Shown here piece after piece: positions 29,308 through 50,772 of a stretch of DNA of 64,000 bases. Each line of letters begins with the position of its first letter. The first letter of the stretch is position 1. Origin of the DNA: Dehalococcoidia bacterium (GTDB lineage Bacteria; Chloroflexota; Dehalococcoidia; SZUA-161; SpSt-899); the NCBI GenBank assembly GCA_034434815.1, contig DAOTYO010000059.1, forward strand, positions 3,082-67,081. Direction: 5' to 3'. Both the position numbers and the translations under genes were made by a program. The notes beneath the pieces were generated by a model. That model had not been told where the DNA came from. It did not search any database and worked only from the letters and a program-made list of their open reading frames with translations.

Positions 29308-29447
29308 TCGCCCAACCCCAGGCAGTTGATGCAGATGAAGCGGACCATGTCCCGAACCGCCCCGTATTGATCGGCGAGATAGGCGCCCAAGATCCCGGAA
29401 AAGGTGAGGATCAGGGTCAGCCGCACGATCGGCAGAAATTTTCCCAT
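29304..29447 (-). CDS. Small membrane peptide with C-terminal CxxC (CD1871A-like)
   Basis: MGKFLPIVRLTLILTFSGILGAYLADQYGAVRDMVRFICINCLGLGD; stop overlaps the next start. Confidence 0.7.
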   Translation of the reverse strand: MGKFLPIVRLTLILTFSGILGAYLADQYGAVRDMVRFICINCLGLGD

Positions 29448-34103: not shown

Positions 34104-34144
34104 CCCGAAAGGAGCAATTGGGGGTAAGGGATTGCCGGGACCCG
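34104..34144 (+). repeat. MITE-type end plus 25-bp direct repeat (left of island)
   Basis: CCCGAAAGGAGCAATT (TIR-like) followed by GGGGGTAAGGGATTGCCGGGACCCG. Confidence 0.7.
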
Positions 34145-35110: not shown

Positions 35111-36132
35111 AACGGTCAATCTGGATTACGGTCATTGCAGCTATTCTGTTTGCTGAAATCCTGTCAACGGCGGTATACGCATTCGACTATGAGACTCAAC
35201 GAGATGGCGCAACCACACAGAGAAGCTATGTTTTCTGATACTGGGCTGTTTCAAATACCTCAATGTTCTGGAATACTCCCAACAACCCTCCGCCGGCCTT
35301 TGTGGCGGGAGTGCAACAGGCCATCCAGTCTTGGACAAGCACAGTGCCAAAGTTGACGTGGAGCCAGTCCACCGCTGCCCCAGATGTCACCTTTTAGATT
35401 GCAACGTTGCCTCCCGGTACCCCTGGAGCTATGGCATTCGACACGTGGGTTTGGGACTCTGTTCGGCAGGCCTATTATTGGACAAAGGCAACGGTCTATG
35501 TTGCAACTGGAGTGCACTTCACTACAGCCGGCCTAAAAGCTGACCTCTGCCACGAGATTGGTCACCTCTATGGCATCGATGATCAATACACCGTGGGCGG
35601 GTGCGCAAGCAGCCCCAATTCCATAATGCAGGGAGCACATCTTGATGGCCAAGGCAGAGTTGATTGCCAAACCTATTGCCCCCCACCAAACTATACCCCC
35701 ATCTGTATTTATGCTCCAACCAGTTGGGATACAGGAAGAGTCAATACCTACTGGGGCCAAGGAGAGGCCAAGAACTTAAGCGCCGTACCCAACGGCTCCC
35801 AAGTCATCATCACGTGGGACGACTACAGTTGGGCCGAGAACGCCTATCAGCTCTATTTCTACAAGTGGAATGGCTCATCATGGCAATATCTCACGATGGT
35901 TGCCGTGTCTAGTAACACTGGCTCTCACGATACCGTGATCAACAGAACGATCTCCTATGTCTGGACGGGATCTGGGCCCGGTAACTATTATGTTGTGGTG
36001 AAACCGTATTTCATAAAATACGGTCAATACGGAACTTCCCAAGTCAAGACGTTCACTTTGTCGCAAAAACAGCGATGGGGGTGGGGGGTAAGGGATTGCC
36101 GGGACCCGAGCGGCTTTTTCGACTTCCCGTGA
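35107..36132 (+). pseudogene. Secreted matrixin-like zinc metalloprotease with FN3-like tail, two in-frame stops
   Basis: One frame from GTG 35107: signal peptide MKRSIWITV...AVYA, TGA 35236-35238, TAG 35395-35397, HEIGHLYGID motif. Confidence 0.75.
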
Positions 36133-36212: not shown

Positions 36213-37127
36213 TCATATCCCTTGGCGATTCTGCCGCTCTTTGCTTCTGGGGTGTGCCTCCAGATACCGCCGGCGCATTTGCCCCTTGGTCACATGGGTG
36301 TAAACTTGCGTGCTGGAAAGATTGGCGTGCCCCAGAAGCTCTTGCACGACCCTGAGATCGGCGCCGCCGTCGAGCATGTGCGTAGCGAAGGTATGCCGCA
36401 GGGTGTGGGGATGGACCCGTTCGCTGAGGCCAACTTGCTGGGCGTATGCCTTGAGGAGGTACTGGATCCGCCGCTCGGCGATCCGCTCGCCGTATCGGTT
36501 CAGGAAAAGGGCCTTCGTCTTTCGGTTGCCTAGGAGCTTGGGTCTTCCGGTCTTCAAATATGCTTCCAACGCTGCGGCCGCGGGGGTGCCCATGAGAACC
36601 ATCCGCTCTTTTGATCCCTTTCCTCGGACCCGGATCTGCCGCGTGGCCACGTCCACTTGATTGGTGTCGAGGGAAACGATCTCGCTGAGCCTCAGTCCGG
36701 AGGCATAGAGCAACTCGAGCAAAGCGCGATCGCGAAGGCCGTAGGGGGTGGAGATATCCGGGGCTTCGATCAACGTGCGGATTTCATTTGCGGTCAGGAA
36801 ATCCGGAAGGCGTCTTTCACGTTTGGGACCGGATATTTTGCTCAGGGGGTCATCATGAATCAAGCCTTCATTGTTGAGAAACCGGAAGAAGGAGCGCAGG
36901 GCGCTCAGTTTGCGGGCCACGCTGGCCCGCACGATTCCGGAGTCCAGAAGCTCCCCCAAGTATTGGCGGACGTGCGTCGCTGAGACCTCTTCCAGTGATG
37001 GAACGCCGGTTCTCCGAAGGAAATCAAGAAAGCCGAGGACATCGGTGGAATAGTTTCTCACCGTGTAAGGGGAGAGATTGCGTTCCGTGCCCAGATGAAG
37101 GGTAAACTTCTCGAGAAACGCTTCCAT
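36213..37127 (-). CDS. xerC: Tyrosine recombinase XerC/D
   Basis: R(D)RALLELLYASGLR, GKGSKER, HPHTLRHTFATH, LLGH...TQVYT; dprA-topA-xerC synteny. Confidence 0.9.
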   Translation of the reverse strand: MEAFLEKFTLHLGTERNLSPYTVRNYSTDVLGFLDFLRRTGVPSLEEVSATHVRQYLGELLDSGIVRASVARKLSALRSFFRFLNNEGLIHDDPLSKISGPKRERRLPDFLTANEIRTLIEAPDISTPYGLRDRALLELLYASGLRLSEIVSLDTNQVDVATRQIRVRGKGSKERMVLMGTPAAAALEAYLKTGRPKLLGNRKTKALFLNRYGERIAERRIQYLLKAYAQQVGLSERVHPHTLRHTFATHMLDGGADLRVVQELLGHANLSSTQVYTHVTKGQMRRRYLEAHPRSKERQNRQGI

Positions 37128-37200
37128 GACGTTTCGCGCCCTCAAAGCAACGCTGCGATGCCGCTACATGATTCCCTTGCTGTGGGTATGGGCCCTCCGG

Positions 37201-41360: not shown

Positions 41361-42485
41361 TTAGCTCAGAATCTCTTTTGCCATCTCTGAAACCATCCGG
41401 GCGATGGCGGGCGAGGCGGTCAGCCCCGGCGATTCAATCCCTATCAAATTGATGAGCCCCTCAAGCCCGCGATCGACTTCGTGGGCAATGACGAAATCTC
41501 GGAACGCTTCATCGGGCCCCTGAAGCTTGGGCCGGATTCCGGCAAAATCCGGCTGAACGTCTTTCAACTCAAGGAAAGGAAGGAATTGCCGGGCCGTGGT
41601 GAAGAACTCCCGCTCGATGCCTTTGTCCACCCGATAGTCCACAACCTCGGTATAGCGGGCATTCGGTCCGAGCCGCATCCGGCCATCGATCCCAAGGGTA
41701 AGGTGAACGCCCAGAGCGGTTTTCTCCGGTGGGGGATAGATGAGCCGGGACACCTTGCCATGCCACCGGGGACTGATGCTGGCGTAGTTGCCCTTGCAGT
41801 AGTGAAGGCGGTAGCCCGCCTCATCAATGGCGATTCCGGCAAGCCCGGCGATTCGATCGGACCCCAGACCGGCGGCGTTGATGGCAATTTGAGCGGCGAG
41901 TTCGGAAATCCCTTCTGAATCCCGGATTTGGAGGGCATAGCCGGAGCCGCTCCTCTCGATCCCGATCACTTCCGCCCCGAAGAGGAAATCGGCACCGTTT
42001 GCCCGCGCCTTTTGGTACAAGAACTCCATCAGTTTGTGGACGCTGATGATCCCCGTCGAAGGGGAAAGGAGCCCCGCCCGGGCGTGGACGTTGGGTTCAA
42101 GGCGCTTCACCTCCGCTTCGGAAAGGATGGAGAGGTCTCCCACGCCGTTGTTCTCTGCCCTTTGCTTGAGCGCCTCGAGGTGCGCCGTCTCCCGATCATC
42201 GGAAGCGACGATGATCTTGCCGATCCGTCTGTGAGGGATGCCGTGTTTTGCGCACAGCTCGTAAAGAAGGGTGCGCCCTTCCACACAGAGTCGTGCCTTC
42301 AGCGAGCCTTGGGGATAGTATATTCCGGCATGAACGACCTCACTGTTTCGGCTGCTCGTCTCGGCGCCGAAGGTGGCGTTCCTTTCGATCACCCAGACGT
42401 CCTTGAAGCGAGCCGAGATCTCGGCCGCTATGGCCAATCCCACCACCCCCGCCCCGATAATGGCGACATTCGCATTGAAGGCCAT
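41361..42485 (-). CDS. FAD-dependent oxidoreductase (L-2-hydroxyglutarate oxidase/DAO family)
   Basis: IIGAGVVG, ETSSRNSEVVHAGIYY, FAGIRPK, GIESPGLTAS. Confidence 0.88.
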   Translation of the reverse strand: MAFNANVAIIGAGVVGLAIAAEISARFKDVWVIERNATFGAETSSRNSEVVHAGIYYPQGSLKARLCVEGRTLLYELCAKHGIPHRRIGKIIVASDDRETAHLEALKQRAENNGVGDLSILSEAEVKRLEPNVHARAGLLSPSTGIISVHKLMEFLYQKARANGADFLFGAEVIGIERSGSGYALQIRDSEGISELAAQIAINAAGLGSDRIAGLAGIAIDEAGYRLHYCKGNYASISPRWHGKVSRLIYPPPEKTALGVHLTLGIDGRMRLGPNARYTEVVDYRVDKGIEREFFTTARQFLPFLELKDVQPDFAGIRPKLQGPDEAFRDFVIAHEVDRGLEGLINLIGIESPGLTASPAIARMVSEMAKEILS

Positions 42486-42578: not shown

Positions 42579-44171
42579 TTACTTATCGAGAATCTCCAGC
42601 GCTTCCTCGCGGTAGCAGTCCATCAGATACGGGATGCCCGTCACCTTCGCGCACTCCTCGGTAAGCGACATGAGGTCCCGGCGGGAGATCGCCGGCACGC
42701 TGAAGCACCGTGCCCCGGCCATGAGTTGTTGCAGGCCTACCTTGATCTTCTGCGAGTAGCTGTAGATGCCGATGGCCCCCAGCGGGATATTCTTGATTTC
42801 GCTGGCGCCCACAAGGTTCTTGACCTCTTCGTAACACACGAAGATCTCTTCGACCGTTGACCCGAACTGACTGACCGTGTTGGGGAGCTTCCCATCCTTG
42901 AGCCACTGCGCGATGTTCTTGCCCACCATGCCGGGGATCATGAGGGCTCGTCCCATGCACACGGCTTTGGTGAAGGGGGACCCGAGGGCAAGGGCCTTGA
43001 ATACGCCGTCTTCGCTCGAGAAGCCTCCGGCAAAGGCGATATCGGGCGGACGCTGGCCCTTATCCGCTAGACGCTTGCAAAATTCGTATGCCGCCGAATG
43101 CAGATACAGACTCGGGATGCCCCACTCCTCCATCATCCGCCATGGACTCATGCCCGTGCCGCCGGAGGCCCCATCGATGGTGAGAAGATCGATCTTGGCG
43201 TTGGAACCCCATTTGATGGCCATGGCCAGTTCGCGCAGGCTGTATGCCCCGGTCTTGAGGGTGATACGCTTGAAGCCGATCTTGCGCAGCCGCTCGACTT
43301 CCTTGTAAAAACCTTCCTCATCAATGAATCCGAGCCGGCTGTGCCGCTCGAATTCCTTGATGGCCCCATCCTTGAAAGCCGCTTGATTGATGGGATTGGA
43401 GGGATCGGGAGTAACGATGTAGCCACGCCGCTGGAGTTCGAGGGCGCGGTCGAGGCTGTTCACCTTGATTTCCCCGCCGATGCATTTAGCTCCTTGACCC
43501 CACTTCAGTTCGATGGTGGTCAGGCCGTGCTTCTTATGAACGTATTCGGCCACCCCCAGCCGGGTATCTTCCACATTCATTTGGACGAGCATCTCGCCCC
43601 AGCCTTGATAGTATCGCCGGTACTGCTCGATCCGCCGGTCCATATCCGGCGAAAGGGCGATCTTACCCTTCGAATCCAATTGAAGGCCGGGATCGACGCC
43701 GCACACATTTTCCCCGCATACAATGGTCACGCCGCTGATGGCCGCGCCCACAGCGAAGTGTTCCCAGTTCTTGCGGGCGATTTCGGTGGAGCCCAGGGCA
43801 CCGGTGAAGATGGGCACTTTCATCTTCACCTTGATATCCCAACCGTAATCCGTCTCGGTGTTGACCAAGGGGAAAGTCGCCGTATCGGGATTGCCCTTGA
43901 CACCTTTGGGAAGGCCCTTTGCCCCCAAGGCGTACCCCTGAATATTGAGATGCGAATAGTCTATGGGATAGTCCTTATCGCATCCGGCGGTGATTTCACC
44001 GAAGGGGCCCGGGTAGAGGAGCTCCCGGCCGCGAAAAGTCGCTTTGAACACTTCGCAGTTGCCGGTACACCCGTCCAAACACCGCGAGCAGAGGCCGCTG
44101 GACGGTACCACGCTCCTCGATCGATTGGCGGTTCGGGTGGCTTCGTTAGCGTTGGGGGACCTGAGATTCAC
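42579..44171 (-). CDS. Stand-alone FMN-binding glutamate synthase family protein
   Basis: GTG start with RBS AGGAG; CSRCLDGC..C, IELKWGQGAK.IGGE, TIDGASGGTGMSP, AGG, MGRA. Confidence 0.85.
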   Translation of the reverse strand: MNLRSPNANEATRTANRSRSVVPSSGLCSRCLDGCTGNCEVFKATFRGRELLYPGPFGEITAGCDKDYPIDYSHLNIQGYALGAKGLPKGVKGNPDTATFPLVNTETDYGWDIKVKMKVPIFTGALGSTEIARKNWEHFAVGAAISGVTIVCGENVCGVDPGLQLDSKGKIALSPDMDRRIEQYRRYYQGWGEMLVQMNVEDTRLGVAEYVHKKHGLTTIELKWGQGAKCIGGEIKVNSLDRALELQRRGYIVTPDPSNPINQAAFKDGAIKEFERHSRLGFIDEEGFYKEVERLRKIGFKRITLKTGAYSLRELAMAIKWGSNAKIDLLTIDGASGGTGMSPWRMMEEWGIPSLYLHSAAYEFCKRLADKGQRPPDIAFAGGFSSEDGVFKALALGSPFTKAVCMGRALMIPGMVGKNIAQWLKDGKLPNTVSQFGSTVEEIFVCYEEVKNLVGASEIKNIPLGAIGIYSYSQKIKVGLQQLMAGARCFSVPAISRRDLMSLTEECAKVTGIPYLMDCYREEALEILDK

Positions 44172-45204
44172 GTTCGCACTTCTCCTTTCGATGTTTTTTG
44201 AATTCACTATCCAATGCCTCGAATTCGACGAGGTCTTGGTAGTCCATAAGAGTGGCCATGGCCCGGTTTTCCGCCTCGATCCCCTCCTCCTCCGCTGCGG
44301 CCACGGGGTTCATTCCACCGATCAAAACCATGCCGATCTTGTTCGGATGGACGGGGACCTCACACACGGGGGCGCTTGTGGAACCCATGATCAGAACATT
44401 CCCCAATCCCGCCTCGCGCAGTTGGGAAATCACATCTTCCGCCAGTTTGCGGCATGCGGCGGGAATTTCGCGGAAGTTGGCCAGAATCTTTCCGTTCCCT
44501 TGTCTTGCGGCATGCAAGACGGTGGTCATCTTCCCCCGGATGAACACTTCCGAAGGGTCGAGGGAAGAGCCGGCATAATGGATGAGCTCCACGAACCGCG
44601 ACGGGCGCCCGTGCTGTAATTGCAAGATACCGCCAAAACGGGAATCCATGGGAATGCCGGCCTTGAGAAGAACGCCATTGGTTACCACACTGCAGACCGT
44701 CGCTAGACCGATCTTTCCTTCCGGGACCCGAATCAAGCCCAGTGATTCTCCCTCCGCGCGGATCGCTATCCGGCTCCCGGCGCAAAGCCCCGCCTTGAAT
44801 ACGGGAGCCATGACCGTGAGGGCCTTCCGGAATTTATCCGCGGCGAAGAAGGAAACGTTCACCGGTATCAGACCTTTGCGGGTCTTGGGATCGAAGGTGG
44901 TCTGGAACCCCAGAATCTCGATCCGGGATATGGCAAATCCCACCTTATCTTGAACGAGGGCGCTTTCCGCTTCTTCGAGGCCTTGCTCGGTGATCCGCCT
45001 CCCATCCCGCCCCGCCAGAGTGGTGAGCCCCCGCTCATCCATGAGTTTGAGATGGTACCGTACCGCCCGCTCGGTAAGGTCGATGCCGTGCTCTCTCAGA
45101 TGCCGTGCGATCACCCGTGCGCCAAGGGGCTCGCGGCTCTCCCTCAGAATCCTCAGGATGGTGAGGACTTTTCTCTCGACCTCTTGGGTTTCTGTTCCGA
45201 TCAT
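44146..45204 (-). CDS. nrpR: NrpR-family regulator (wHTH + NRD/DUF128), paralog a
   Basis: TERAVRYHLKLMDERG, GR.IT..G, ATVCSVVTNG, SSLDPSEVFI, IGGMNP. Confidence 0.88.
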   Translation of the reverse strand: MIGTETQEVERKVLTILRILRESREPLGARVIARHLREHGIDLTERAVRYHLKLMDERGLTTLAGRDGRRITEQGLEEAESALVQDKVGFAISRIEILGFQTTFDPKTRKGLIPVNVSFFAADKFRKALTVMAPVFKAGLCAGSRIAIRAEGESLGLIRVPEGKIGLATVCSVVTNGVLLKAGIPMDSRFGGILQLQHGRPSRFVELIHYAGSSLDPSEVFIRGKMTTVLHAARQGNGKILANFREIPAACRKLAEDVISQLREAGLGNVLIMGSTSAPVCEVPVHPNKIGMVLIGGMNPVAAAEEEGIEAENRAMATLMDYQDLVEFEALDSEFKKHRKEKCERESQVPQR

Positions 45205-45251
45205 GCCGATTTGACTTTCCGGTTAACTTTTTCCTCGACCCGGTATGGTTA

Positions 45252-45445
45252 TACCCATAATACGGTAAAAGGTTGCCGATGTTGTGCCCGCATCATCCTA
45301 TCATTGTTTGTGTATGCTGTCAAGAGCATAGTGATTATCGGCAAAATTACCTGATATTATTGCCAATATCATTTGCCACAATCGGCAAGGCGGCAATATG
45401 GTGTTCCGATCACCATTGACAAAGGGTGTTCAGGCCTCTTAGAAT
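45252..45445. promoter_or_regulatory. Divergent promoters of nrpR a/b with repeated CGG(C/T)AA half-sites
   Basis: Minus strand TTGACA-N17-TAGGAT (45295-45323); plus strand TTGACA-N18-TAGAAT (45416-45445); palindromes CGGTAA-N4-TTGCCG and TTGCC-N6-GGCAA. Confidence 0.6.
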
Positions 45446-45454
45446 TCAGCCATC

Positions 45455-46462
45455 ATGAGCGGAAAAGTACGGAAAAAGGCTCTGGCAATATTGAATGTCC
45501 TTCGATCTGCCGAAGGCCCTCTTCCCAGCGGGGAGATCGCCCGTGCCCTGCTTTCGCTCGGGCTCGAGGTCAGCGAGCGCACGGTTCGCTTCTATCTCCA
45601 ACAGATGGATCAGGAAGGTCTCACGGAGACGATCGGAAAACGCGGCCACAGGATCACTTCTCTGGGACTTAAGGAGATAGATAGCTCCGGCACCATTCAA
45701 CGGGTAGGGCTTCTTTCGGCAAAAATCGATCGGATGACTTATGCGATGGGCTTCGATCTCACCACGAAGTCGGGCACGGTGGTAGTGAATCTCACCTTGG
45801 TTGAGCCGAGGGCGCTTGCGGAACGAGCGGAGATGATCTGCAAGGTGTATTCGGAGGGATACGCGATGGGGCGTCTCCTTTCGCTTCTGGGCCCCGGCGA
45901 GCGGCTCGGCGACCTCGCCGTTCCGGAAGGCATGGTGGGGATCGCCACCGTGTGTTCCGTGACGCTCAATGGCGTGCTACTCAAACGGGGTATCCCCACC
46001 AACTCCCGCTTCGGCGGGCTTCTCGAGCTTCGGCAGAGGCTTCCCACGAGGTTTGTGGAGATCATCATGTATGAAGGGACGAGCATCGATCCGCTTGAGG
46101 TGTTCATCCGGAGCGGTATGACGGATTATCTGGGGGCGATCCGTTCGGGCGATGGGCGGATCGGGGCCAGCTTTCGGGAGTTTCCCGCGGAGAGCCGGGG
46201 CGTTGTGGAGGATCTGGCTCAGAGGCTCGAGCGGGTAGGGTTGGGGGGATTCATGGCGATCGGGAGGCCGAGTCAACCGCTTTTGGAGATCCCGGTGAGC
46301 GAGGGGAGAGTCGGGGCGATCGTCATCGGCGGCTTGAACCCCGTCGCCATCTTTGAAGAGACGGGGCTTCGGGTTCAATCGCGGGTCATGGCGGGGATCA
46401 TGGATTTCAATCGTCTGTTCGGGTATGAGGAGCTTCCCTCCCGGATCCGCTCCCTCATGTGA
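45455..46462 (+). CDS. nrpR: NrpR-family regulator, paralog b
   Basis: SERTVRFYL, ATVCSVTLNG, TSIDPLEVFI, IGGLNP. Confidence 0.88.
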   Translation: MSGKVRKKALAILNVLRSAEGPLPSGEIARALLSLGLEVSERTVRFYLQQMDQEGLTETIGKRGHRITSLGLKEIDSSGTIQRVGLLSAKIDRMTYAMGFDLTTKSGTVVVNLTLVEPRALAERAEMICKVYSEGYAMGRLLSLLGPGERLGDLAVPEGMVGIATVCSVTLNGVLLKRGIPTNSRFGGLLELRQRLPTRFVEIIMYEGTSIDPLEVFIRSGMTDYLGAIRSGDGRIGASFREFPAESRGVVEDLAQRLERVGLGGFMAIGRPSQPLLEIPVSEGRVGAIVIGGLNPVAIFEETGLRVQSRVMAGIMDFNRLFGYEELPSRIRSLM

Positions 46463-46466
46463 TGCG

Positions 46467-47471
46467 TTAGCGGTGAAGGATATCCGGGAAAGGGATCAGC
46501 GCTTCATAAGGGAGGAGGGTGCTCATGGCCCGGTTCTCAGCGGAGATCCCCCCTTCTTCGGCCGCCGCCACGGGATTCATCCCCCCGATGAGGATCATCC
46601 CGATCTTGTTGGGTTGCACGGGGATCTCGCAGACCGGAGTGCTTGTGTTTCCCATGAGGAGGAGTTCCCCCAACCCCGCCGATTTGAGCCCGGCCACCAC
46701 CTCCTCGACCACAGGCCGGCATACCGCAGGGACCTCCCGGAAATTGGCGAGTATCTTCCCGCTGCCTTGGCGGGCCGCTTGGGCTACCGAGGTCATCTTG
46801 CCGCGGATGAAGACTTCAGAGGGATCGAGGGAGGAGCCCGCATAGTGAATGAGCTCCACAAAACGCAGGGGTTGCCGATTGCGGATCTGAAGGATGCCGC
46901 CGAAGCGGGAATCCATCGGCACCCCCGCTTTGAGAAGCGTCCCGTTGATGACGATGCTGCATACCGTCGCCAGACCGACCTTTCCTTCGGGAACCAAAAG
47001 CTCGCCGAGTTTTTCACCCGATCGAGCGATGGCCACCCGGTCGCCGGCGCATATCCCCGCCTTGAAAACCGGCGCCATCAGATTGAGGGCCTTGGCTAGT
47101 TTCTCCTCAGGGAAAAACGACACGTTCACCGGCACCATGCCGGTACGGGTCTTCCAATTGAAGTCCGTCCGGAAAGCCAGAAGCTCGATCTTGGTGATGG
47201 CCAATCCCACCTTATCCTGAACCAGGGCACTGCTGAGCTCATCCAGACCGGCGGACGTGATCACCCGGCCGTCTCGCCCCACGAGTTGCGTGAGGCCTCT
47301 TTCATCCATGAGTTTGAGGTGATAGCGGACGGCCCTTTCCGTCAGATCAACGCCATGAACCTTGAGCTCTCGGGCGATCACCCGGGCCCCCAGCGGTTGA
47401 CGCGATTCACTCAGGATGCGAAGGATGGCGATGCTCTTGCGTTCCACCTCTCGGGTCTCACTGCCGATCAT
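46467..47471 (-). CDS. nrpR: NrpR-family regulator, paralog c (closely similar to a)
   Basis: Same motifs as paralog a with long identical stretches; RBS AAGGAG 8 nt before ATG 47471. Confidence 0.88.
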   Translation of the reverse strand: MIGSETREVERKSIAILRILSESRQPLGARVIARELKVHGVDLTERAVRYHLKLMDERGLTQLVGRDGRVITSAGLDELSSALVQDKVGLAITKIELLAFRTDFNWKTRTGMVPVNVSFFPEEKLAKALNLMAPVFKAGICAGDRVAIARSGEKLGELLVPEGKVGLATVCSIVINGTLLKAGVPMDSRFGGILQIRNRQPLRFVELIHYAGSSLDPSEVFIRGKMTSVAQAARQGSGKILANFREVPAVCRPVVEEVVAGLKSAGLGELLLMGNTSTPVCEIPVQPNKIGMILIGGMNPVAAAEEGGISAENRAMSTLLPYEALIPFPDILHR

Positions 47472-47643
47472 GCTCACGTCTCCTTGTGCCGATATTCGGA
47501 ATGAGGGGTTCTATAGGTAAATCATGAAACAGGGATGAGTGTCATGTCAAGCTTTCGGAGGCCTTTAGGGGGAAGAAGCGTAGGAAATGTGCGTGGAAAA
47601 GGGGGAATCCGGTCCGGATTCCCCCTTTTTCGGAAACCCAGCG

Positions 47644-48987
47644 TCAGAGGATGGGAAGATACCGCTTGATCTCGTAGTCGGTCACATAGGTGCGGTACCG
47701 ATCCCATTCGATTTTCTTGTTCTCGATGAATTTCTGGAACACGTGCTCGCCGAGCGCTTTACGCACCAGTGGGCTGTTTTCGGCAAGGGTGATGGCCTCT
47801 TGGAGGCTCCCGGGCAGGGTGCCGATCCCCCGGCGCTTGCGCTCTTCATCGCTCATCTCATAGACGTTCTCTTCGACCGGCTCGGGCACTTCGTACTTAT
47901 TGACGATCCCTTCGAGCCCCGCCGCCAACATGACGCTGAAGGCAAGGTATGGGTTGCACGCCGGATCGGGAGAGCGGAACTCGATCCGGGTGGCCTTCTC
48001 CCGGCCGGGTTTGTACTCCGGTACCCGAATGAGATCCGAGCGGTTGCGCCGTGCCCACGAGAGATACACCGGCGCCTCATACCCGGGAACCAGCCGTTTG
48101 TATGAATTGACCCACTGGTTGCACACGGCGGTGATCTCCGGCGCATGTCTGAGGAGCCCGGCGATGAAGTGTTTGGCGATCGCCGAGAGATGATACTTAT
48201 CGTTCGGATCGAAGAAGGCGTTCTGATTGCCCTTGAAAAGGGATTGGTGGCAATGCATGCCGCTTCCGTTGATCCCGAAGATCGGCTTGGGCATGAAGGT
48301 GGCGTACACGCCGTGCCGCAGGGCCACTTGCTTCACCACCAGCCGATAGGTCATCACATTATCGGCCATGGTGAGGGCATCCGTATAGCGCATGTCTATC
48401 TCGTGCTGACTCTGGGCCACCTCGTGATGGGAATACTCGATCCCGATGCCCATCTCCTCGAGGGCCAGCACCGTGTCCCGGCGGTAGTCGGTGGCGGCAT
48501 CGAGGGGGATCAGATCGAAGTATCCGCCTTGGTCCAAGGCTTCGGTGGAGTTCGAATCCTTGAAATAGAAGTACTCAAGCTCCGGTCCGACGTAATAGGT
48601 GTATCCCATCTCGGCGGCGCGCTGGAGGTTCTTCTTGAGGACGTGTCGGGGATCCCCTTCGAACGGTTCACCGGTGGGCTTGTAGATATCGCAGAACATC
48701 CGCGCCACGGCCCGGTGTTCCTTGGGGCGCCACGGGATGAGGCAGAAGGTATCCGGATCCGGCAGGGCGATCATATCGCTCTCGTCGATCCGGGCGAAAC
48801 CTTCGATCGAAGACCCGTCGAATCCCATCCCCTCCTCCAGAGCACCCTCCAGTTCCTCTACCGTGATGGCGAAACTCTTGAGGAACCCCAAAATATCGGT
48901 GAACCATAGACGAATGAATTTGACGTCATGCTCCTTGGCCTTCTTGAGCACATAAGCCTTGCTTTCCTCTCGGTTCTTCGGTCCCAT
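47644..48987 (-). CDS. glnA: Glutamine synthetase type I
   Basis: FDGSSIEGF, GPELEY, HHEVA..QHEI, FMPKP, NGSGMH, YKRLVPGYEAP, IEFRSPD. Confidence 0.97.
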   Translation of the reverse strand: MGPKNREESKAYVLKKAKEHDVKFIRLWFTDILGFLKSFAITVEELEGALEEGMGFDGSSIEGFARIDESDMIALPDPDTFCLIPWRPKEHRAVARMFCDIYKPTGEPFEGDPRHVLKKNLQRAAEMGYTYYVGPELEYFYFKDSNSTEALDQGGYFDLIPLDAATDYRRDTVLALEEMGIGIEYSHHEVAQSQHEIDMRYTDALTMADNVMTYRLVVKQVALRHGVYATFMPKPIFGINGSGMHCHQSLFKGNQNAFFDPNDKYHLSAIAKHFIAGLLRHAPEITAVCNQWVNSYKRLVPGYEAPVYLSWARRNRSDLIRVPEYKPGREKATRIEFRSPDPACNPYLAFSVMLAAGLEGIVNKYEVPEPVEENVYEMSDEERKRRGIGTLPGSLQEAITLAENSPLVRKALGEHVFQKFIENKKIEWDRYRTYVTDYEIKRYLPIL

Positions 48988-49127
48988 AGCGATCTCCTTT
49001 CGAATTGATTGAGTGGAGGCAATTACCGTTCAAAGCCGCTTTTCATTCCCTCATATTGTATCACCTATGCCCGCGCCTGTCTTTCAATCCATGGTAGCGG
49101 GGGAATATTTCGGGAAGATTACGTTTC

Positions 49128-50689
<1,562 letters not shown>

Positions 50690-50734: not shown

Positions 50735-50772
50735 GTTTCCGGTGTTTTGCACTTCTGTTACGGCTGTGTTAC
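50735..50772 (-). promoter_or_regulatory. Four 11-bp periodic boxes upstream of amtB (GlnR/OmpR-like)
   Basis: GTAAC-N6-GTAAC-N6-GCAAA-N6-GAAAC on the minus strand. Confidence 0.55.

Follow-up and report, generated by a model that had tools for sequence, protein, structure and literature searches.

NrpR of Methanococcus maripaludis, composed of a winged helix-turn-helix (wHTH) followed by the regulatory domains NRD1 and NRD2, represses nif, glnA, and glnK-amtB and responds to 2-oxoglutarate (2-OG). To our knowledge, studies of NrpR have been confined to methanogens, its homologs in bacteria exist as annotations only, and almost no transcription factors of Dehalococcoidia have been characterised. 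Here, we analysed three adjacent nrpR-type genes, designated a, b, and c, in a stretch of 64,000 nucleotides from a Dehalococcoidia bacterium (contig DAOTYO010000059.1; hereafter, the window). A reading of these letters alone, the original prediction, had proposed that they form a heteromeric or tiered 2-OG-sensing circuit. The background on which that proposal drew agrees with the literature: NrpR is a 2-OG-responsive repressor (PMC11957540), and Methanosarcina uses an NrpRI/NrpRII system in which NrpRII lacks DNA binding and contacts the TATA-binding protein (TBP) (PMC3960522). The archaeal NrpR operator is GGAA-N6-TTCC, and the occurrence of NrpR in "certain Bacteria" was mentioned in the same report (PMC2723118). 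In M. formicicum, an NrpR operator also precedes pdxT (PMC4335013), and archaeal nrpR was reported as not nitrogen-regulated (PMC9765008). No functional or comparative study of bacterial NrpR homologs, including those of Dehalococcoidia, was found in our literature search.

The window contains exactly three nrpR copies as judged by tblastn. The gene a (44146..45204, minus strand, 352 aa) adjoins a glutamate synthase-like (gltS-like) gene, b (45455..46462, plus strand, 335 aa) lies in the middle, and c (46467..47471, minus strand, 334 aa) is located 3' of glnA. The open reading frame (ORF) of c spans 46467-47477/47471, and the ATG at 47471 (MIG...) was the best start, as in the c homologs. a and b diverge from a 250-nt spacer, and b and c converge with a gap of 4 nt. 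On the minus strand, the order was amtB-glnK-glnA, c, (b on the plus strand), a, gltS-like, DAO/LhgO-like, DUF5343, dprA, and topA. These coordinates, orientations, and flanking genes are those originally predicted. From the evidence described below, we favour with moderate confidence the view that a, b, and c encode three separately transcribed, homo-oligomeric NrpR repressors providing layered 2-OG-linked nitrogen control, rather than one heteromer.

Each of the three proteins showed HTH_12 (PF08461; E-values of 1e-12 to 1e-23) and exactly one NRD (PF01995, NRD1_2; about 1e-80 to 1e-82), and all three genes are complete. The identity was 71% between a and c, 41% between b and a, and approximately 42% between b and c (the last by tblastn), as expected from the description of a and c as close and b as divergent. 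The recognition helix TERAVRYHLKLMDERGL was identical in a and c. With regard to the NRD fold, c matched PDB 3NEK (MJ0159 of Methanocaldococcus jannaschii) by sequence with an E-value of 1.3e-21. An AlphaFold2 model of b (pLDDT 88.8) was also superposed on 3NEK with a target-normalised TM-score of 0.87, an rmsd of 2.7 Å, and an E-value of 8e-19, and the N-terminus of the b model matched wHTH domains. When about 240 homologs were compared, 96 positions were at least 90% conserved in both the a/c-type and b-type clades, covering the NRD motifs VPEG, TVCS, NG.LLK, SRFGG, RF.E.I.Y.G.S.DP.EVFIR, FRE.PA, and GG.NP. From homology (PMC11957540) and this conserved NRD core, we infer that 2-OG is the effector.

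The same triplet, c> <b a>, recurred in three independent samples, namely L082 (SRR27723350), L083 (ERR15087788), and L085 (ERR14790931); these and similar numbers are our designations for related loci. The order was amtB-glnK-glnA-c-b-a-gltS-like in L082 and glnE-c-b-a-gltS-like in L083, and c was 77-89% identical to the copies in the three samples. Furthermore, the window NrpR proteins were 63-89% identical to many proteins of metagenome-assembled genomes (MAGs), and the nearest named relatives were Dehalococcoidia/Chloroflexota MAGs, in agreement with the bacterial origin that had been assumed. The ratio dN/dS between orthologs (Nei-Gojobori) was 0.07-0.11 for a, about 0.07 for b, and 0.06-0.11 for c; in the unsaturated pair L082/L085 (dS 0.56-0.72), it was 0.107 for a and 0.066 for c. 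The intact copies are under purifying selection.

The upstream regions were also compared. A 14-bp palindrome, GGnAA-N4-TTnCC, was conserved at a fixed position 5' of a/c-type nrpR genes. When 5-mer palindromes were counted without bias in 88 nrpR upstream regions, GGCAA-N4-TTGCC was observed in 16, GGAAA-N4-TTTCC in 13, and GGTAA-N4-TTACC in 6. Exact palindromes with GGCAA, GGAAA, or GGTAA were thus present in 35/88 nrpR upstream regions, as opposed to 0/188 coding controls. A position weight matrix (PWM) was built from the upstream N4 sites (consensus TAGGnAAnCGnTTnCCTA) and gave sites in 78 of the 88 a/c-type nrpR upstream regions; most PWM sites (84/93) lay between -75 and -25 relative to the start codon. 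When 1.19 Mb of locus DNA was scanned, 83 of the 107 strong sites were upstream of nrpR, and the strongest of the others preceded genes for glutamate dehydrogenase (gdh), HisF-like proteins (one of them divergent from pdxT), and ferredoxin. We rejected a rule of tandem operators at a regular 22-bp spacing, as a second site was located at 17 or 22 bp in just 7/78 regions.

In the window, the candidate N4 operator ACGGTAAAAGGTTGCCGA was located at 45262..45279, with the core GGTAA-N4-TTGCC at 45264-45277. Its PWM score of 20.0 was the best in the window, in which it was the only strong N4 site. This core departs from the literal archaeal consensus GGAA-N6-TTCC. The site lies directly downstream of a predicted sigma70-type promoter of a (45295..45323, minus strand; TTGACA-17-TAGGAT, with TG), at about +11 to +24 from the predicted transcription start site. 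Both hexamers of the promoter were conserved in L082, L085, and L083, in which the orthologous N4 sites were found at -72/-73. A weak second N4-like site, CCGGTTAACTTTTTCCTC (45219..45236; PWM score 10.2), was also observed in the 5' untranslated region of a; its significance is uncertain.

The gltS-like gene (42579..44171, minus strand) encodes a glutamate synthase FMN domain and an N-terminal Cys-rich motif. Its likely start is the GTG at 44171, which gives a protein of 530 aa that matches the homologs and is accompanied by a Shine-Dalgarno (SD) sequence. The 18-aa C-terminal tail of a (KKHRKEKCERESQVPQR, 44146-44171), which is shorter in relatives, reads through this SD sequence and start. 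Because the gltS-like start overlaps the a stop by 26 nt, a and the gltS-like gene would be one operon, which probably includes the LhgO-like gene as well and probably is controlled by the N4 operator. The LhgO-like gene (41361..42485, minus strand), 3' of the gltS-like gene, encodes an FAD oxidoreductase of the DAO family; it probably ends the operon or is followed by one more gene in it. Its best NCBIfam match was L-2-hydroxyglutarate oxidase (NF008726) with 238 bits, which is under the cutoff of 299 bits. If the LhgO assignment is right, an enzyme producing 2-OG would be placed under a 2-OG-responsive repressor. The gltS-like-DAO-DUF5343 synteny was seen again in several loci.

Other matches to the operator pattern in the window were rejected. 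Those at 34123 and 36087 are part of a perfect 25-nt direct repeat, GGGGGTAAGGGATTGCCGGGACCCG (34120-34144 and 36084-36108), which matches the NrpR operator pattern by coincidence and bounds an insert of 1.96 kb with a low GC content (about 50%). The insert contains two ORFs of 221 and 241 aa with no Pfam match, the latter with an HExxH-like motif, and adjoins a tyrosine recombinase/integrase gene (36213-37145, minus strand); it resembles a small integrated element with att-like ends. The weaker PWM hits at 29429, 22066, and 26452 were in coding sequence or 5' of an unrelated Fe-S protein gene and were judged to be chance matches.

The control regions of c and b were different from that of a. 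The predicted promoter of c (TTGACA-18-CATGAT) was located at 47521..47550 on the minus strand, and no N4 operator was found with the PWM within 250 nt of it. A terminator-like hairpin 3' of glnA (47598..47628, minus strand), composed of a 14-bp perfect stem followed by UUUU, parts glnA from c. The hairpin had a dG of -28.6 kcal/mol (z -4.0), and compensatory changes keep it in L082 and L085. L083 differs, as c there carries an N4 operator (score 17.2 at -42) and a gene for a 1253-aa GlnE, glutamine synthetase adenylyltransferase (L083 328-4089), stands in place of glnA directly 5' of c.

The predicted promoter of b (TTGACA-18-TAGAAT, 11/12) was located at 45416..45445 on the plus strand. The end of its -10 box, TAGAAT, and the ATG are 9 nt apart, and the block TAGAAT-TCAGCTATC-ATG (window 45440-45457), which has no SD sequence, is conserved across divergent b-type loci (L004, L006, L082, and L083). 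The b mRNA thus probably lacks a leader or has only a very short one. An array of GGCAA/TTGCC half-sites (45340..45396), including GGCAAaaTTACC (45340-45351) and GGCAAggcGGCAA (45384-45396), was observed in the interval separating the two divergent promoters of a and b, and GGCAA words abut the -35 box of b. GGCAAaaTTACC is a one-mismatch version of GGCAA-N2-TTGCC. The exact N2 element was found at -97 to -106 of b-type genes in relatives, and b-type upstream regions accounted for 7-8 of its 12 exact occurrences in 1.3 Mb. In loci with a lone b-type gene, an N2 element was close to b, and a tandem pair of N4 palindromes was close to the gltS-like gene; a strict rule, N4 for the a/c type and N2 for the b type, was consequently rejected. 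With three sigma70-like promoters bearing different cis-elements (N4 at a, none at c, and N2 with half-sites at b), the tiered circuit suggested by the original prediction is plausible.

Neither amtB nor glnA, whether in the window or in relatives, was preceded by an NrpR-type operator of the N4 or N2 kind; the candidate sites stand at nrpR/gltS-like, gdh, and hisF-like genes. The amtB promoters carried a different element, a GTAACA-N5-GTAACA direct repeat, in all four loci compared (window 50735-50772 on the minus strand, L082, L002, and L005), and GGAAAC followed the repeat in the window and L082. These results suggest that amtB-glnK is under another, non-NrpR regulator; the repeat resembles actinobacterial GlnR boxes. 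An Rfam scan of the window gave tRNAs only and no glnA/glutamine riboswitch. The control of amtB-glnK-glnA (47644..50689, minus strand) by the three proteins, which had been implied, was therefore not supported, and these genes, adjacent as they are to the triplet, do not appear to be under direct NrpR-type control.

We also examined the phylogeny and distribution of the paralogs. In a neighbour-joining tree of 100 copies, the b-type genes formed a deep separate clade. A second protein search extended this clade to more than 120 clusters at an identity of at least 63%, spanning Chloroflexota and Syntrophorhabdaceae/"Deltaproteobacteria". The a-orthologs and the c-orthologs were each grouped with 100% bootstrap support, and c was grouped with both L083 copies with 94%. 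The tree indicates that a/c is a lineage-specific, recent duplication, and the presence of two c-like copies in L083 points to gene conversion or turnover.

Among 80 GTDB Dehalococcoidia loci surveyed for synteny, the usual state was one a/c-type nrpR followed by the gltS-like gene, often with a hisF-like gene between them, and nrpR -> (hisF-like) -> gltS-like was the commonest arrangement. Pairs of b and a/c-type genes were found in L004, L006, L008, L010, L014, L078, L086, and L089, and two MAGs had three copies spread over two loci (L011 with L014, and L006 with L017). A lone b-type gene divergent from the gltS-like gene was observed in two lineages, namely Syntrophorhabdaceae (L087/88) and a further one (L091/92). 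In addition, b has decayed in some relatives: in L085, a 331-nt out-of-frame deletion removed the NRD core, and in L002, b is a 29-aa remnant. The a/c-type copies of both loci are intact.

A three-copy cluster of another arrangement was present in L086. At 1-1202 of this locus, a third, more divergent NrpR (54% identity to the a/c type over the last 156 aa) was found with a Y1-transposase-like gene, 5 kb from the b/ac pair; in L086, a three-NrpR cluster has arisen by a separate route.

Most Dehalococcoidia have a gene for a 257-aa HisF-family protein (PF00977) that either separates nrpR from the gltS-like gene or is preceded by a strong N4 operator of its own. Examples are L058 (10999-11772), L089 (3860-4633), L042, L059, and L066, and the gene was once divergent from pdxT. 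The HisF-like and GltS-like proteins are possibly an uncharacterised enzyme pair. The HisF-like gene is missing from the a operon of the window.

Based on these findings, we propose the following model for three separate repressors. At low 2-OG, that is, under nitrogen sufficiency, the a/c-type protein would bind to the N4 operator and block the transcription of a, the gltS-like gene, and the LhgO-like gene, and the binding of 2-OG to the NRD would free the protein from the operator. c would provide a basal supply of repressor that is not regulated, as is the case for archaeal nrpR, and a would add negative autoregulation. b would be an independent NrpR, probably autoregulated, acting on the shared 250-bp control region via differently spaced GGCAA half-sites and dispensable when an a/c-type copy is present.

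Several points weigh against this model. The N4 operator is a comparative prediction, and the upstream regions scanned with the PWM were also those used to build it; this training does not affect the unbiased palindrome count, the spacing comparison, or the positional constraint. As lone b loci carry both N4 and N2 elements, the operator classes cannot be cleanly assigned to the clades. The b deletion of L085 is known from one Logan contig only. Moreover, an a/c-type gene accompanies b in about 12 of the 14 lineages examined, which fits a functional interaction too, and the clade-specific residues described below could mean different effectors.

A further elaboration is possible and, in our view, rather doubtful. 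In this case, the 250-bp a/b region would be a composite switch, in which the two NrpR clades, anciently diverged and differing in their recognition helices, read the same GGCAA half-site at N4 and N2 spacing, cross-regulate each other, and possibly form mixed oligomers; together with the unregulated c, it would produce a graded, multi-threshold 2-OG response. Since b/ac pairs are frequent and the control region is composite, some cross-talk between b and the a/c type is possible. Such a switch, if it exists, would give bacteria an NrpR circuit architecture that has no archaeal counterpart.

A full heteromeric sensor, in which a, b, and c form mixed dimers or tetramers and their different wHTHs read composite operators, would be an all-DNA-binding bacterial counterpart of NrpRI/NrpRII. 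The tight gene clustering, the position of the b-type gene beside an opposite-strand a/c-type gene in most lineages, the N4- and N2-spaced GGCAA palindromes held by the shared 250-bp control region, and the archaeal precedent for a two-protein NrpR (PMC3960522) all speak for this idea, which was part of the original prediction. We nevertheless consider it unlikely. Because b occurs alone at gltS-like loci in other lineages, has been lost repeatedly (L085 and L002) while the a/c-type copies are still under selection, and has its own predicted promoter, the three promoters lying on opposite strands, an obligate heteromer is disfavoured. Furthermore, a and c share the recognition helix, and hence an a:c mixture would add no DNA specificity. 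The analogy with Methanosarcina also did not hold, since NrpRII works without DNA binding via contacts with TBP, which bacteria lack, and all three window paralogs have the wHTH. A tiered circuit of parallel repressors thus appears more likely than an obligate heteromer.

Similarly improbable, in our estimation, is a set of sub-functionalised sensors that would recognise the same or overlapping DNA and respond to different effectors, such as 2-OG versus glutamine, L-2-hydroxyglutarate, or the redox state via cysteines of the a/c type. Most of the 49 clade-specific positions that we found are in the NRD, A47T and H51Y are in the recognition helix, and three cysteines (C141, C251, and C281) are confined to the a/c type; the LhgO-like oxidoreductase within the regulated operon is also in line with this explanation. 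It is opposed by the NRD core motifs, which are conserved in both clades (the 96 positions mentioned above).

Redundant duplication, in which a and c would result from a recent tandem duplication retained by chance or for dosage, with no distinct roles, and b would be a relic, is less probable still. The lineage-specific a/c split, the c-like nature of both L083 copies, and the decay of b in some relatives are compatible with it; against it, a and c are distinct ortholog groups by bootstrap, with dS of 0.6-1.4 and dN/dS of about 0.06-0.11, and their promoters differ consistently, with an operator at a only. Finally, an assembly duplication or pseudogenes, raised by the original prediction as a caveat, were ruled out by the triplet in three independent assemblies, the full-length frames, the 29-59% difference among the paralogs, and the purifying selection. 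Taken together, these findings favour three separate repressors.

The window proteins belong to the bacterial proteins annotated as "NrpR regulatory domain-containing" or DUF128 in Dehalococcoidia and Syntrophorhabdaceae. What is new here is the three-paralog cluster, the two-clade structure, and the predicted operator and regulon, all of them described from comparative data. The proteins share with NrpR of M. maripaludis the family (PF08461 and PF01995; COG1693), the NRD fold represented by 3NEK, and the theme of a nitrogen-assimilation regulon. The candidate bacterial operator has the same 14-bp palindromic frame with GG...CC ends as the archaeal one and is likewise in tandem at some promoters, and the bacterial GGAAA-N4-TTTCC variants literally satisfy GGAA-N6-TTCC. 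In contrast, the window proteins have a single NRD each, as against two in the archaeal protein, and come from a bacterium, in which the promoters are of the sigma70 type. The predicted operator core differs as well (GGnAA-N4-TTnCC), and the predicted bacterial targets are nrpR, gltS-like, gdh, and hisF-like genes, not glnA or amtB. In addition, most bacterial copies appear to be autoregulated, unlike archaeal nrpR, which is reported not to be nitrogen-regulated (PMC9765008).

Compared with Methanosarcina, the window proteins resemble NrpRI in having a wHTH and a single NRD, b-type homologs are labelled "NrpRI" by JGI, and both are multi-paralog systems. They differ from NrpRII of Methanosarcina mazei and Methanosarcina acetivorans in that all three paralogs keep the wHTH and no TBP is involved, and the comparative evidence points, indirectly, to independent regulators with no obligate partnership. 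The locus extends a known family incrementally and does not represent a new mechanism. Together with its relatives, it provides a concrete, testable model of nitrogen/2-OG regulation in Dehalococcoidia and a natural three-paralog case of how duplicated sensors divide labour. The predicted operator echoes the archaeal one across domains, whereas the predicted core regulon (gltS-like, gdh, and hisF-like genes) differs.

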